NCBI GenBank assembly: GCA_964626775.1
Contig: CAZVGQ010000001.1
Location: 1-40,117, forward strand
Length of the DNA: 40,117 bases
Source of the DNA: an uncultured Smithella sp.
Lineage (GTDB): Bacteria > Desulfobacterota > Syntrophia > Syntrophales > Smithellaceae
Direction: 5' to 3'
Shown here: positions 33,654 through 40,117 of the stretch, piece by piece
How the letters are laid out: each line of letters begins with the position of its first letter
Position numbering within the stretch: position 1 is the stretch's first letter
Notes under the pieces: model-generated
Told to the model about the DNA's origin: nothing
Seen by the model: the letters and a program-made list of their open reading frames with translations, nothing else
Database searches by the model: none
Made by a program: the position numbers and the translations under genes

Positions 33654-34445
33654 ATGAAAATCAAAAAAGACGCAAAGCAAAAAAGAACCAGGATCGGCCT
33701 TTTCGGTTTCGGTAAAACCGGCCGTCTGGTGGCGGAAGAGTTTTTTCAGGACGGTTTATTCGATCTCGAGTGGGTGGTCCGGAAAACGCACAAGGAAAAT
33801 CACAAATATGCGTCCCGTCTGCTGGGGTATGAAGTGGATGACGCGAGGGTTTTTTCGGTGGATGAAGCGAACCCTGATTTTTACCGGCTGCACCCGGTGG
33901 ACATCATCGTTGATTTTTCAAGCGCCGCCGCTCACCGGCAGTACGCGCCCGCCGCCGATTTTGGAATCCGGATCATTTCCGCCATCTCGAAGTACAGAAC
34001 GGAAGACGTGGAGGATTTGAGGCGGATGGCTGAAAAAACGGCGGTGCTGTATTCGCCGAACATCACTCTGGGTATCAATTTTCTGCTCGTGGCTTCGCAG
34101 ATCCTTCAGGGAATCGCTCCACACGCGGATATTGAAATCGTGGAAGAGCACTTTCGCGGCAAGAAAGAGGAATCCGGCACCGCTTTGAAAATCGCGGAGG
34201 TTCTGGGCCTGGAAAAGGAAAAGCGCGTCAACTCCATTCGCGTGGGAGGAATCGTGGGCAAGCACGAAATCATTTTCGGTCTGCCCAACCAGACCATCCG
34301 TCTGGTGCATGAGAGCATCAGCCGGGCGGCGTTTGGACAGGGCGCCATTTTTGCCGCCAAATGGCTGATCCAGGCTCCACCGGGACTCTATTCCATGGAA
34401 AATATCATCGTGGATATGTTTAAGAAAAACATTCCCGTTTACTAG
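33654..34445 (+). CDS. 4-hydroxy-tetrahydrodipicolinate reductase (DapB) family protein
   Basis: An N-terminal Rossmann motif (IGLFGFGKTGR). DIEIVEEHFRGKKEESGTA aligns with E. coli DapB [20 protein letters not shown] (from memory), and the His and Lys are retained. Confidence 0.7.
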   Translation: MKIKKDAKQKRTRIGLFGFGKTGRLVAEEFFQDGLFDLEWVVRKTHKENHKYASRLLGYEVDDARVFSVDEANPDFYRLHPVDIIVDFSSAAAHRQYAPAADFGIRIISAISKYRTEDVEDLRRMAEKTAVLYSPNITLGINFLLVASQILQGIAPHADIEIVEEHFRGKKEESGTALKIAEVLGLEKEKRVNSIRVGGIVGKHEIIFGLPNQTIRLVHESISRAAFGQGAIFAAKWLIQAPPGLYSMENIIVDMFKKNIPVY

Positions 34446-36370
34446 ATATCCATCAGCATCAGCTTGTCGCCGATATCCACGGACGAACCGGGGGACGCAA
34501 AGATTTCCGAGACCTTGCCGTCCACGTCCGCCAGGATGTTGGTGAGCATTTTCATGGCTTCCAGGACGACCAGCGTGTCGCCGACGCCGACCTCGTCGCC
34601 CACCGCCACGGGAATCTGGTTGACGACGCCCTTCAGGGTTGCGCGGATATCGCCCATTCTGGCCAGCGCCTCGATTTCCTTGGCGGAAAGCGCCACGGGA
34701 GTTTTTGGCTTTTCTCCCTCGCTGTCGGCCGGTGTGACGACGGGTTCGGGATGGTAATCAATTCCCAGATGCGTCATGTACGAGCCGTCCTTGGTGCGGC
34801 GGGAAGGGCCGATTTCAATGGTGTGCAATTTGCCGGTGGCGTCGGGGAATTCAAATTTGTCGCCGATGCTGAATCCGCCGCGGCGGAACCACACGTTGGG
34901 CGGCAGCACCCATGTCTTGCCGAACTTTTCCTCAAACTTGAAAAAGCCCACCGCGTCATTGGGATGCTGCAGATACAACACCAGCTCGTCGTCGTCGGCC
35001 TTCCGGCCGATCGCGTGCTCCAGGATTCGTTTTTCAACGTCCAGATCGACGTCTTCGATTTTCTGGTAGCCGGCTTCCCTTCTTACGATTTTTCTCCAGT
35101 CTCCGCCGAAGACCGCTTCATAAATCTCCGGCGCCGGCTTGTAAAACGGGAACTTGCCGTAGCGCTCCAGAAGCAGATTTTTCAAATCGTCGCTGGCGTC
35201 CCGGTAGCGCGCTCCCTTTACGACATTGTTGGCGGCCGTGGTCCACAGGATCTGTGAACCGGGAGTGACGCTCCAGAAGTTGCCCAGTTCGACCTGCACA
35301 CGGGGCAGTTCGTTTTGCAGAATATCCGGCATGCGGTCCAGAAAGCCGCCCTTTTGCGCCTGTTCGAAGCTGGACCCCGTCGCACCGCCGGGCAGCTTGT
35401 GGGTTTGCACCGTCGGGTCGAATCCGAAAAACTGCGATTCGAAATCACGGTAATAGGGTCGTTCGCGCCGCAGTTTGTTGGACGCGTCGATGACGGCCTG
35501 TTTGTCCAGCCCGACGGCGGGAAAGCCGTAATCTTCCAGTGTGTTCACCACCGTCAACAGCGGCGGCGGCCCGTAGAAGCCGGTCAGCGCATGGTCGCTC
35601 GCATCCACGATTTTCGCGCCGTTTTGCACGGCGGCCACGATGCGGCCGATTTCGTTGCCGTCGGTGTTGTGTCCGTGGTAGTGAATCAGCAGATCGGGAT
35701 ACTTCTGCACGATGGCGCGCACCAGCTCGCCGATTTGCCGGGGGGATCCCAGCCCTCCGTGATTTTTAATGGCCAACAAAATATCCGGACCGGTCACGTC
35801 CAGAATTTCACCGATTTTCCGAATGTAGAACCGATGGGTATGCTCCGGCCCCGTCGAGAAGCAGACGGCCGCTTCGAGAATACGCCCCGCTTTTTTGACT
35901 TCTTCATAAACGGGGATCATGTTGGGGATGTAGTTTAAAAAGTCGAACACCCGCCAGACATGGACACGGCGGGCAAACGCTTCCACCGTCAGACGGATGA
36001 TGTTTTCCGGATACGGGCGGTAGCCGAACAGATTGATGCCGCGGCACAGGGTCTGGAATAGCGTGTCGGGCATCAGTCCCGCGAGCACGTCCAGTTTTTC
36101 CAGCGGATTCATCTGCCGGCGCAGCAGATCGACGTGCACCGACGCGCCGCCCGTGATTTCCAGGGAGAAGTATCCGGCCGCGTTGCGCTCCGGGGCGACG
36201 AGCATCTGTGTGTGGGGCATGATCCGGTTTTTAAAGTCCGACTGCGAAAGGTCCCTCTCGGTATTGGTGAGGTAGTATCCTTTTTGTCCGCGCATTTTGT
36301 CCAGAATGGATTTAACCCCGTCGCTTTGAAGATCCCGGGGGGTGATCCGTCCTTCCGGCCAGCTTTTCAT
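34442..36370 (-). CDS. biotin-dependent carboxylase, carboxyltransferase plus biotin-carrier subunit (PycB/OadA-like, divergent)
   Basis: An HMGL-like TIM-barrel region colinear with PycB (…QTLCRGINLFGY…WRVFDFLNY…HYHGHNTDG…). The C-terminal biotinyl domain carries the EAMKM motif (VVLEAMKMLTNI). Confidence 0.8.
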   Translation of the reverse strand: MKSWPEGRITPRDLQSDGVKSILDKMRGQKGYYLTNTERDLSQSDFKNRIMPHTQMLVAPERNAAGYFSLEITGGASVHVDLLRRQMNPLEKLDVLAGLMPDTLFQTLCRGINLFGYRPYPENIIRLTVEAFARRVHVWRVFDFLNYIPNMIPVYEEVKKAGRILEAAVCFSTGPEHTHRFYIRKIGEILDVTGPDILLAIKNHGGLGSPRQIGELVRAIVQKYPDLLIHYHGHNTDGNEIGRIVAAVQNGAKIVDASDHALTGFYGPPPLLTVVNTLEDYGFPAVGLDKQAVIDASNKLRRERPYYRDFESQFFGFDPTVQTHKLPGGATGSSFEQAQKGGFLDRMPDILQNELPRVQVELGNFWSVTPGSQILWTTAANNVVKGARYRDASDDLKNLLLERYGKFPFYKPAPEIYEAVFGGDWRKIVRREAGYQKIEDVDLDVEKRILEHAIGRKADDDELVLYLQHPNDAVGFFKFEEKFGKTWVLPPNVWFRRGGFSIGDKFEFPDATGKLHTIEIGPSRRTKDGSYMTHLGIDYHPEPVVTPADSEGEKPKTPVALSAKEIEALARMGDIRATLKGVVNQIPVAVGDEVGVGDTLVVLEAMKMLTNILADVDGKVSEIFASPGSSVDIGDKLMLMDI

Positions 36371-36403
36371 AACAGTTTCTCCTTCATGGTGTGGTTCGGT
36401 CCG

Positions 36404-37852
36404 CTAAAAGGCATAGGGATTTATTTTTTTCGAGTGAATCTCCGCGATCAGCCGGGACAGCTTGGCGATTTCCCGTTCGGTGTCGGGATAGTCAAAGATT
36501 TCGGAATGTTCATCGAGATAGCCGGTCGTAAATTGACCCTTGCGAAAGTCCGGCTCATCGCAGATGGACAGATAAAACGGGATCGTCGTTTTCGGACCGA
36601 CAATCAAAAAGTCGTGGAGCGCGCGCTTCAGGCGCTGAATGGTCTGCTCCCAGGAATAGCCGCGCACGGTGAGTTTGACCAGGAGCGAATCGTAATCGGT
36701 GGGAATTTTGTAGCCCTGATACACGATGCCGTCGAGACGGATTTCCGGGCCGCCGGGCGACTGATACACCTCGACGCGCTTGCCGCCTTCCGGCATGAAG
36801 TTGTTTTTGGGGTCTTCGGCGTTGATGCGGACCTGAATGGCTTTGCCGACCAGATGGATCCGTTCCTCCGGAATGTCCAGCGTCTCGCCTTCGGCCATCA
36901 GAATCTGCTGGCGGATGATGTCGATGCCCGTGAGGATTTCCGTGACGGTGTGCTCCACCTGCAGGCGGGTGTTGACCTCCATAAACCAGAATTCGTTGGT
37001 TTTCGGATCCACCAGAAATTCCACCGTGCCGGCATTGACGTACCCCGCTTCACTGGCCGCCCGAATGGCCGTCTGGTGCATGGCGTCAAGCACGCTTTTC
37101 GGCAGGTCGGCCGGTGCGATTTCCAGCAGCTTCTGGTGGCGGCGCTGAATGGAGCAGTCGCGCGTGCCCAGATGCATCGCATGGCCGTAGGCATCGGCCA
37201 GAATCTGCACTTCGACGTGGCGGGGCGACTCGACGCATTTTTCGATGTAAATGCGGTCGTCGTTGAAGGCGGAGCGCGCTTCGGAGCGAGCTTGCGGCAG
37301 TTGGGCGCGGAGGTCTTCTTCGCCGGCAATTTTGCGAATGCCGCGTCCGCCGCCGCCGGCCAGCGCTTTGAGCATGATCGGATAGCCGTGCGTTTTGCCG
37401 AAGGCCACGGCCTCCGAAAGGCCCGCATCGCCCGCGGAAAGCGTGCCGGTTCCCGGAATAAAGGGGATGGAGGCTTTTTTCATGATGTCGCGGGCGACGA
37501 CCTTATTACCCAGATCACGAATGACCCGGGGGGGAGGTCCGATAAACGTGATTCCCGCATCGACGCAGGCCTGGGCCAGATCAGGATTTTCCGACAAAAA
37601 ACCGTAGCCCGGGTGAATGGCGTCCGCTCCGGCTTTTTGCGCTGCTCCGATGATTTTGTCAATATTCAGGTAATCCCTGCGCGGCCCGTCTCCGATCAGA
37701 ATGGCCTGATCGGCAAATCGCAGAAAATACGCTTCGCTGTCCGGTTTTTCATAAACCGCGACGGTGGAAAGCCCCATTTCCTTGGCGGTGCGGATAATGC
37801 GCAAAGCGATTTCCCCCCGGTTGGCCACCAGTAATTTTTGGATTTTTTTCAT
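36404..37852 (-). CDS. biotin carboxylase subunit (AccC/PycA-type)
   Basis: KLLVANRGEIALRIIRTAKEMG, HPGYGFLSEN, KALAGGGGRGIR and FMEVNTRLQVEHTVTE. ATG 37852 follows AAGGAAGAAAGGG. Confidence 0.92.
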   Translation of the reverse strand: MKKIQKLLVANRGEIALRIIRTAKEMGLSTVAVYEKPDSEAYFLRFADQAILIGDGPRRDYLNIDKIIGAAQKAGADAIHPGYGFLSENPDLAQACVDAGITFIGPPPRVIRDLGNKVVARDIMKKASIPFIPGTGTLSAGDAGLSEAVAFGKTHGYPIMLKALAGGGGRGIRKIAGEEDLRAQLPQARSEARSAFNDDRIYIEKCVESPRHVEVQILADAYGHAMHLGTRDCSIQRRHQKLLEIAPADLPKSVLDAMHQTAIRAASEAGYVNAGTVEFLVDPKTNEFWFMEVNTRLQVEHTVTEILTGIDIIRQQILMAEGETLDIPEERIHLVGKAIQVRINAEDPKNNFMPEGGKRVEVYQSPGGPEIRLDGIVYQGYKIPTDYDSLLVKLTVRGYSWEQTIQRLKRALHDFLIVGPKTTIPFYLSICDEPDFRKGQFTTGYLDEHSEIFDYPDTEREIAKLSRLIAEIHSKKINPYAF

Positions 37853-38006
37853 AAACGCCCTTTCTTCCTTAGTTGAGATGACGCCTCTGTATGTAGGGGT
37901 TATACTTGCCCCGCCCAAGGCCTGTCAAGCACAGAGTCTTGCAATGATTATTTGATTATTTTGATGAAATATTTTATCGTGTCGCACGTTTATTGAGGGC
38001 GTTCTT

Positions 38007-39905: not shown

Positions 39906-40062
39906 GCGCGGCTTCGCATAATTCAGTCTTGCCATAACCACCGGATTGTGGAATACTTCCGCGCGAATCCGGACGATTCATGAAGCATTACGGGCTTTTG
40001 GTTTTGCCGGATGGTAAAATAACATCAACCATATCAATCATATCAAGGGAGGTAGCAGGATT

Positions 40063-40117
40063 ATGTCAAATGCAGTCATTGTCAGCGGTGTGCGCACGGC
40101 GGTTGGAGCCTTCGGCG
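40063..40117 (+). CDS. thiolase (acetyl-CoA acetyltransferase), 5' fragment running off the right edge
   Basis: MSNAVIVSGVRTAVGAFG is a canonical thiolase N-terminus. GGGAGG lies upstream of ATG 40063. Confidence 0.7.
   Translation, partial: MSNAVIVSGVRTAVGAFG

Follow-up and report, generated by a model that had tools for sequence, protein, structure and literature searches.

A two-subunit biotin-dependent carboxylase of Smithella and many other Desulfobacterota that lacks the catalytic threonine: a candidate pyruvate carboxylase with a rebuilt active-site pocket

The window considered here is a 40,117-nucleotide stretch of a Smithella metagenome-assembled genome (1.83 Mb, 78% complete), and its minus strand carries two adjacent genes for a biotin-dependent carboxylase. 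The first (36404..37852) encodes a biotin carboxylase (BC, alpha) subunit of the ATP-grasp type with 482 amino acids. The second (34442..36370) starts 33 nucleotides after the BC stop codon and encodes a beta subunit of 642 amino acids, in which a carboxyltransferase (CT) domain, a tetramerisation/allosteric-type (PT) domain and a biotin carboxyl carrier protein (BCCP) domain are combined; it belongs to a clade that is called FYG-type below. Matches to the pyruvate carboxylase (PC) model PRK12999 (E values of 3.6e-103 and 4.7e-183) mark both as real genes rather than chance open reading frames, and one operon encoding an alpha/beta carboxylase is the best explanation of the layout. Each gene has its own ribosome-binding site: GGAAGAAAGGG precedes the BC ATG at 37852, and AGGAG lies 8 nucleotides ahead of the ATG of the CT gene. 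A promoter-like sequence, TTGACA-N18-TATAAC (37899..37928, minus strand), was read by eye about 45 nucleotides upstream of the BC start, where a consensus scan missed it because its second hexamer ends in C. An alternative BC start, TTG at 37918, falls within this promoter-like site, so that the ATG at 37852 is the likely start. The operon has no third gene and is flanked by a DapB-like and a Pat-like gene.

The BC subunit is conventional. Its Pfam domains are Biotin_carb_N, CPSase_L_D2 and Biotin_carb_C, and the catalytic ATP-grasp motifs are intact (GGGGRG at 166, HQK at 239, EVNTRLQVEH at 292 and RINAEDP at 342), so that the classic motifs reported for this frame by an initial annotation of the DNA are confirmed from the translation. 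The subunit matches PRK12999 with 610.9 bits over model positions 3-484. In the PDB it matches the BC of acetyl-CoA carboxylase (ACC), A. aeolicus PycA, the small subunit of the H. thermophilus 2-oxoglutarate carboxylase (OGC) and PC about equally well (440-470 bits); it is therefore generic and uninformative on the substrate.

The beta subunit has the features of the DRE-TIM metallolyase superfamily, namely a TIM barrel, an (E)-R-D motif, an HxH motif and a PYC_OADA funnel domain. Pfam matches are HMGL-like PF00682 (32.2 bits, cut-off 29), PYC_OADA PF02436 (121.8 bits, cut-off 27) and Biotin_lipoyl (49.8 bits). Alignment confirms the colinearity with PycB proposed in the initial annotation. 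The subunit is also colinear with residues ~512-1141 of single-chain PC and therefore contains CT, PT and BCCP domains, including the N-terminal PT segment (residues 12-38, aligned with PC residues 512-540). Its best NCBIfam match is PRK12999 with 346.3 bits, and the cut-off of 965 is not reached. Other PC models give 241.2 bits (TIGR01235, cut-off 1114) and 188.3 bits (NF010645, cut-off 1182), the OadA model TIGR01108 gives 259 bits (cut-off 756.5) and the transcarboxylase 5S model NF008984 gives 179.7 bits (cut-off 827). The PycB domain model NF006761 gives 289.5 bits against a cut-off of 402, where canonical PycB-like representatives reach 740-876. An AlphaFold2 (AF2) model of the subunit (pLDDT 79.6, pTM 0.75) has single-chain PCs as its best Foldseek matches (TMq 0.73, identity 24-26%). 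It superposes on the R. etli CT domain 4m6v with a root-mean-square deviation of 3.6 Å over ~557 columns and matches M. flagellatus PycB less well (TMq 0.62-0.64). The predicted structure thus confirms an overall fold of the single-chain PC type, with CT, PT and BCCP.

Active-site residues can be interpreted against solved PC structures. In L. lactis PC, the metal ligands are Asp534 of the Arg533-Asp534 pair, carboxy-Lys703, His732 and His734, with pyruvate or oxaloacetate held by Arg606 and with the Thr867 hydroxyl placed between biotin and the methyl group of pyruvate (PMC9581989). R. etli PC cannot do without T882 in catalysis: the T882A replacement abolishes its activity (PMC5895798). Residue invariance in the FYG-type clade was judged in an alignment (A1), and the canonical state was taken from about 100 canonical 50%-identity representatives and three solved enzymes. 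The segment R39-D40-L-S-Q43-S44 (36239..36256; this and all following motifs are on the minus strand) supplies the Asp that binds the metal, together with the Arg and Gln that bind the substrate (PMC9581989), with R39, D40, Q43 and S44 invariant and the His of canonical RDAHQS replaced by Ser. R110 of LCRGINLFGY (36041..36043) aligns with the pyruvate/oxaloacetate-binding Arg606 of L. lactis PC (PMC9581989) and is invariant across the clade, as are G116 and Y117. In K202-N-H-G-G (35753..35767), the metal-bridging Lys, which is expected to be carbamylated, is kept, and the HxH metal ligands H232-G-H234 (35669..35677) are invariant. The four metal ligands D40, K202, H232 and H234 and the substrate-binding residues R39, Q43 and R110 are thus all retained and clade-invariant. 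The biotinylation motif E-A-M-K607-M (residues 604-608, 34547..34561) lies in the C-terminal BCCP domain, and its M606 and K607 are also invariant.

Other positions depart from the canonical state. The segment G74-G-A-S-V-H79 (36134..36151) corresponds to canonical (W)GGATFD, and its Asp is replaced by an invariant His, H79, in every clade member. The change from KDMAG to KNHGG occurs only in the tier of relatives with 59-100% identity to the query. A loop G264-F-Y266-G-P-P (35564..35581) replaces canonical G-(A/L)-T-S-Q-P and places Y266 in the column of the catalytic Thr (T882 in R. etli PC, T908 in S. aureus PC, T867 in L. lactis PC). Canonical enzymes differ in how strictly they keep these motifs: RD(A/G)HQS, WGGATFD and KDMAG are kept in nearly all of the canonical representatives and solved enzymes compared, and the loop has variants among the representatives (GTSH, GASH, GSSH, GTGH, TYGH). 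The Thr column is without Thr in two of the solved enzymes, OadA 2nx9 (GTYGHP, with its Tyr aligned to Y266) and PycB 5ks8 (EGASLP), so that Tyr in this column has a precedent in the solved, working V. cholerae OadA.

These comparisons bear on most of what the initial annotation said about the CT subunit. The motifs that it listed (LTNTERDLSQS, ITGGASVH, IKNHGG, HYHGHNTDG, GFYGPP and EAMKM) are all present in 34442-36370. Its suggestion that a metal-ligand Asp has become Asn was misassigned, because the ligand is the D of RD (D40), which is kept and clade-invariant, and not the first D of DTT (PMC9581989). The altered metal chemistry that it envisaged rested on the wrong Asp; with all four ligands retained, there is no evidence of altered metal ligation. 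GTSQP, which it took for a signature, is not universal, as 2nx9 and 5ks8 illustrate. Its departures from RDAHQS, WGGATFD and KDMAG are genuine and lie outside canonical variation. It had reasoned that the unusual residues would lose their meaning if they also vary in bona fide PycB proteins, which holds for one of the four motifs (GTSQP) and not for the other three.

The close relatives of the CT subunit, with 70-92% identity to it, make up more than 120 protein clusters; all are from Syntrophales-type metagenome genomes and most are labelled "pyruvate carboxylase". A comparison with 1.84 billion representatives at 50% identity shows a sharp gap: near the query are only a few rare relatives (P0121 at 55%, P0123 at 41%, and two single-chain proteins, P0128 and P0137, at 33-34%), and canonical PC, PycB and OadA come next with 27-34% identity. 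In a maximum-likelihood tree of the CT region, the query and its relatives form one clade with SH-like support of 1.0, apart from all PycB/OadA/5S and single-chain PC representatives. The alignment and phylogeny that the initial annotation had called for therefore bear out its view of the CT subunit as an outlier, in a separate clade with a long stem, scores below all cut-offs and no essential Thr. Changes shared across the clade are RDxxQS(D/E), GGAxxH (with canonical Asp replaced by His), an (F/I)-(Y/F)-G loop, (P/T/A)GGA and VTPG(S/Q)(Q/T)I, which is followed by W in most members.

Clade members occur in 70 of 301 sampled Desulfobacterota genomes, about a quarter, and fall into three tiers by identity to the query. 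Tier 1 (31 genomes, 59-100%) has full-length proteins; tier 2 (11 genomes, 50-57%) lacks the BCCP domain and has KNYAG, akin to KNHGG; tier 3 (28 genomes, 40-46%) has proteins of ~690 amino acids. KDMAG is kept in tier 3/Thermodesulfobacterium-type and single-chain members. Identities of 59-92% over several families of the phylum indicate strong purifying selection. Exact-sequence look-up identified Syntrophus buswellii, S. gentianae, Desulfatibacillum alkenivorans, D. aliphaticivorans, Ca. Desulfofervidus auxilii, Thermodesulfobacterium commune, T. geofontis and Thermodesulfobacterium sp. TA1 as carriers. Genome papers list the clade protein simply as pyruvate carboxylase (e.g., PMC5606693). 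Its current RefSeq name is only "biotin/lipoyl-containing protein", which fits because the clade scores under every curated cut-off, and the name "2-oxoglutarate carboxylase large subunit", given to some members by some pipelines, is a mere best-hit label.

Two variants of domain arrangement were observed within the clade. Tier-2 genomes (e.g., G106, G099, G255 and G226) have an FYG-type CT protein of 550 amino acids without BCCP, and 10 of the 11 also have a second, canonical CT+BCCP protein of ~655-700 amino acids, a pairing that hints at a borrowed carrier domain. P0128 (locus L020, 208-3957) is a single-chain FYG-type carboxylase of 1249 amino acids with fused BC, the biotin motif LMKM and a zinc-ribbon-like CxxC...CxxC tail at its C-terminal end.

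Genomic context couples the two subunits to each other and to little else. Of 13 loci inspected across all three tiers, 12 have a BC gene next to the CT gene: the window, G048 (same genus), G010, two Syntrophus genomes, G319, Ca. Desulfofervidus, Desulfatibacillum, G163, Thermodesulfobacterium and two tier-2 genomes; G101 is the exception. Surrounding genes vary by genome and are mostly of the housekeeping kind, such as phosphofructokinase and EF-G in Syntrophus, Fpg in G010, and MetRS, TrmD, a XerC-like integrase-type recombinase and a CCA-adding-type enzyme in other carriers. No pathway-specific neighbours were found in ~14 loci inspected, and a conserved neighbourhood was rejected as a substrate clue, since, the BC-CT pair aside, each lineage inspected has different neighbours. 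A different association occurs in tier 3 at locus L019 (1404-6056), where the FYG-type CT-BCCP gene of P0123 overlaps by 11 nucleotides the start of a two-subunit 2-oxoacid:acceptor oxidoreductase (581 and 281 amino acids), to which it is translationally coupled, and an Old-Yellow-Enzyme-type flavoprotein gene follows.

Most carriers have no other protein of this family. The FYG-type protein is the sole PYC_OADA-domain protein in 25 of 31 tier-1 and 26 of 28 tier-3 genomes, including the complete genomes of two Syntrophus, Ca. Desulfofervidus auxilii and Thermodesulfobacterium sp. TA1. Single-chain PC is present in none of the 70 carriers and in eight other genomes of the 301 sampled (counts uncorrected for genome relatedness), and none of the carriers is among the sampled genomes with a canonical PycB-type protein. 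Within Syntrophales, FYG-type and canonical CTs are not strictly complementary at the domain level, because some genomes hold both. Where Syntrophales have an extra canonical CT gene, it lies with genes for 12S carboxyltransferase, methylmalonyl-CoA mutase, fumarase and succinate dehydrogenase; its product is therefore taken to be the transcarboxylase of a methylmalonyl-CoA pathway and not a PC. A check of 10 carriers for phosphoenolpyruvate carboxylase (PEPC) found none in 9: neither type turned up in any of five Syntrophales carriers, and four of the five others lacked the bacterial type. G010, which is 100% complete, has neither PEPC nor any match to phosphoenolpyruvate carboxykinase (PEPCK).

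Among characterized systems, single-chain PC (EC 6.4.1.1; L. lactis 5vyw/5vz0, L. monocytogenes 4qsk, S. aureus 3bg5, R. etli 2qf7/4m6v; NCBIfam PRK12999) is the most similar. The profile matches of both subunits are highest with it (346 and 611 bits), as is the structural match (TMq 0.73), and it shares the CT-PT-BCCP order, the metal ligands, the Arg/Gln/Arg set and AMKM. Unlike it, the Smithella enzyme is split into two polypeptides, has only 24-26% identity, scores far under 965 bits and has Tyr for the Thr of G(A/L)TSQP, His for the Asp of WGGATFD, RDLSQS and KNHGG. PycA/PycB of M. flagellatus (5ks8) has the same side-by-side BC and CT-BCCP genes; its PycB is the top phmmer match in the PDB (2.8e-62) and is also without Thr in the T882 column, but it retains RDGHQS and WGGATFD, with IKDMAS where KDMAG would be expected. 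OadA (V. cholerae 2nx9) shares the CT fold, a G-x-Y-G-x-P loop (GTYGHP versus GFYGPP) and a VTP(T/G)SQI motif, but keeps RDAHQS, WGGATFD and KDMAG and pairs with membrane OadB and OadG without BC, whereas the Smithella CT gene adjoins a BC gene and has no OadB/G-type gene nearby at its locus. CfiAB of H. thermophilus (small subunit 7kc7), compared by BC subunit and layout alone, has a similar two-subunit BC and CT-BCCP layout and similar subunit sizes; the Smithella BC matches 7kc7/7kct with ~450 bits, which is not diagnostic because ACC BC and PycA match equally well. Carriers of the FYG-type enzyme differ in that they include heterotrophic syntrophs without evident need for reductive 2-oxoglutarate carboxylation. 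The transcarboxylase 5S subunit (P. shermanii 1rqb) shares the CT fold and metal site, but it pairs with 12S, and Syntrophales use a separate canonical CT for that function.

The architecture, the retained ligands, the clade membership and the distribution of the FYG-type pair are established. From these features we consider it somewhat better than an even chance that the pair is the anaplerotic pyruvate carboxylase of Smithella and many Desulfobacterota, with a rebuilt biotin/proton-relay pocket. This reading is favoured because of the domains and fold, the invariant catalytic residues, the adjacency of BC, the housekeeping context, the sole membership of the family in most carriers, the exclusivity towards other PCs and the scarcity of oxaloacetate routes. 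Context, sole membership, exclusivity and few oxaloacetate routes fit a housekeeping C3-to-C4 carboxylase, that is, pyruvate carboxylase, without proving it, and the tier-3 coupling to a 2-oxoacid:acceptor oxidoreductase is counted in its favour as a link to 2-oxoacids. In such an enzyme, BC would carboxylate biotin on K607 of the beta subunit with ATP and bicarbonate, and the BCCP domain would swing carboxybiotin into the TIM-barrel carboxyltransferase site. There, a divalent metal bound by D40, carbamyl-K202, H232 and H234 could, together with R39, Q43 and R110, hold and polarise an enolisable 2-oxoacid, which we infer to be most likely pyruvate, and carboxyl transfer would give oxaloacetate. 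Proton relay from the pyruvate methyl group to biotin would have to proceed without Thr, for which Y266, H79 (in place of canonical Asp) and, in tier 1, H204 are candidates.

Several observations weigh against a pyruvate carboxylase. The CT subunit scores under every curated PC/OadA/5S cut-off, the clade stem is very long (1.08 substitutions per site), and the changes from RDAHQS to RDLSQS, from WGGATFD to TGGASVH and from KDMAG to KNHGG lie outside the variation of canonical enzymes. No Thr or Ser occurs in or beside the T882 column of the query, and at least 5-6 of ~170 clade sequences have Phe instead of Tyr266. The Tyr hydroxyl is therefore no universal substitute for Thr; its role as a simple hydroxyl replacement is weakened by Phe in several clusters, which argues that Tyr is not indispensable for proton relay. 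The confidence of the AF2 model drops to its minimum in the loops of the active site (residues 40-47, 236-239, 261-264 and 312-330). The exclusivity counts ignore genome relatedness and include canonical PycB-type genes without regard to BC adjacency. Further routes to oxaloacetate exist in some carriers (PEPC in G319, GTP-PEPCK and transcarboxylase in G048, and a weak ATP-PEPCK-like match in Syntrophus), so that the gap-filling argument is not universal. A literature search found no paper in which the clade is described or a member assayed.

Many of these points would suit an ATP-dependent biotin carboxylase for another enolisable substrate, such as 2-oxoglutarate (cf. Hydrogenobacter CfiAB), 2-oxobutyrate or a non-oxoacid carbonyl compound, which we regard as possible, though unlikely. 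The rebuilt pocket (His79, Asn203-His204, Phe265-Tyr266) would then reflect the new substrate, as might be expected of a monophyletic clade with such a stem, with clade-invariant replacements around the biotin/substrate pocket and with scores below all PC/OadA/5S cut-offs. Coexistence with PEPC in G319 and with PEPCK and a canonical 5S-type CT in G048 is consistent with this explanation, and so is the coupling of a tier-3 relative to a two-subunit 2-oxoacid:acceptor oxidoreductase. Against it, the Arg/Gln/Arg set that grips a 2-oxo-carboxylate is unchanged, no pathway-specific neighbours accompany the pair, and the spread is housekeeping-like, with one copy per genome in heterotrophic syntrophs and sulfate reducers. 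Syntrophus makes glutamate via Re-citrate synthase in the oxidative direction, and a 2-oxoglutarate carboxylase would therefore have no role there. Sequence criteria for the large OGC subunit were not found in the literature on that enzyme. The initial annotation's preference for a substrate other than pyruvate thus stands as a possibility, and the genomic evidence leans the other way, with no pathway partners, usually a sole family member, PEPC not found in 9 of 10 carriers checked and no single-chain PC in any of the 70 carriers.

Another set of observations concerns the BC subunit. Only one Biotin_carb_C match, beside the FYG-type CT, occurs in the complete Syntrophus genomes G036 and G053, in G048 (99% complete), in G106 and in the window genome. 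Even so, both Syntrophus genomes and G048 contain 2-4 acyl-CoA carboxyltransferase genes, while an AccA/AccD pair of the E. coli type turned up in none of the three. A single BC alongside several acyl-CoA carboxyltransferase genes means that BC may be shared among several biotin enzymes. The pair could accordingly be a shared carboxyl-carrier hub, in which the only BC of the cell also charges other biotin carriers (acyl-CoA carboxyltransferase modules), or its CT may mainly run from oxaloacetate to biotin in a transcarboxylase-like or decarboxylating half-reaction, as the resemblance of its G-x-Y-G loop to that of the decarboxylase OadA might suggest. Taken jointly, these two alternatives appear improbable: sharing of BC is compatible with the CT being a PC, other carriers (G010, G005, G097) have a second BC, no OadB/OadG-type or 12S gene is adjacent, and flux direction is unreadable from sequence. 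In G087, G096 and G319 the second BC match is weak and partial (57-62 bits). Loss of Thr could instead have left the CT catalytically impaired, as a scaffold or BCCP-bearing partner of BC, given that the Thr column does not hold Thr, that several members have Phe and that T882A kills R. etli PC (PMC5895798). This is the most doubtful of the explanations, and we consider it very improbable: identities of 59-92% are maintained across the phylum, metal ligands, substrate-binding residues and the biotinyl Lys are invariant, and working OadA and PycB enzymes are also without Thr in that alignment column. It is also conceivable, at odds well short of even, that FYG-type enzymes are not PCs at all and represent an undescribed phylum-wide biotin carboxylase with another substrate or direction, whose BC, the sole one in Syntrophus and Smithella, doubles as charger of free-standing carboxyltransferase/BCCP modules.

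Beside the pair in the window, the DapB-like gene (33654-34445, plus strand) is convergent to the CT gene, and the two stop codons overlap. Its product scores 114.6 bits against TIGR00036 (cut-off 122), with 63 and 51 bits in a genome scan; the true dapB of relatives is located elsewhere and scores 303-307 bits. The paralogue was found beside the BC-CT pair only in two Smithella genomes, and none was detected in a third, G336. It was rejected as a pathway partner, being a divergent paralogue found beside the pair in those two genomes only. After the Pat-like gene, an open-ended frame of 46 codons (39980-40117, plus strand) has a thiolase gene as its positional counterpart in G048, where an alpha/beta hydrolase gene follows downstream. 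The initial annotation was right on the orientation of the DapB-like gene (convergent) and of the CoA-transferase/GNAT fusion (divergent); the frame that it took for a thiolase has only 46 codons in the window, and its counterpart in the same-genus genome is a thiolase. The lack of a pathway assignment that it noted also agrees with the position of the pair among unrelated, mostly housekeeping genes.

Other carboxyltransferases of the order were encountered in the same survey. G012 and G031 (Smithellaceae, another genus; loci L015, 5708-12908, and L017) have no FYG-type gene and carry a canonical 5S-like CT of ~485 amino acids without BCCP, clustered with malonyl-CoA:ACP transacylase-like, acyl-CoA dehydrogenase, FabH-like and KAS genes of fatty-acid-synthase-like character; this cluster may provide an oxaloacetate- or biotin-linked route to malonyl units. 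G021 (Syntrophales, 2 contigs) has eight PYC_OADA matches, seven of them of a third, low-scoring kind (~77-84 bits, frames of ~510 amino acids) that occurs as single copies in a few other Syntrophales genomes.

The chemistry proposed for the FYG-type enzyme is familiar; what is new, as judged from sequence comparison, is a deep, widespread and long-stemmed subfamily without a residue held to be essential. Among its carriers are the model syntrophs Syntrophus and Smithella, alkane degraders of the genus Desulfatibacillum, Ca. Desulfofervidus as a partner in methane oxidation, and Thermodesulfobacterium; most carriers have no other candidate for the C3-to-C4 carboxylation that supplies the synthesis of aspartate and glutamate. 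If it is a true PC, the threonine regarded as essential is dispensable for carboxyl transfer, and the clade would provide a natural experiment on proton relay, with a Tyr/Phe loop, His for Asp, and Asn-His following the carbamyl-Lys. Otherwise, a central carbon step is misannotated in syntrophs and many sulfate reducers.

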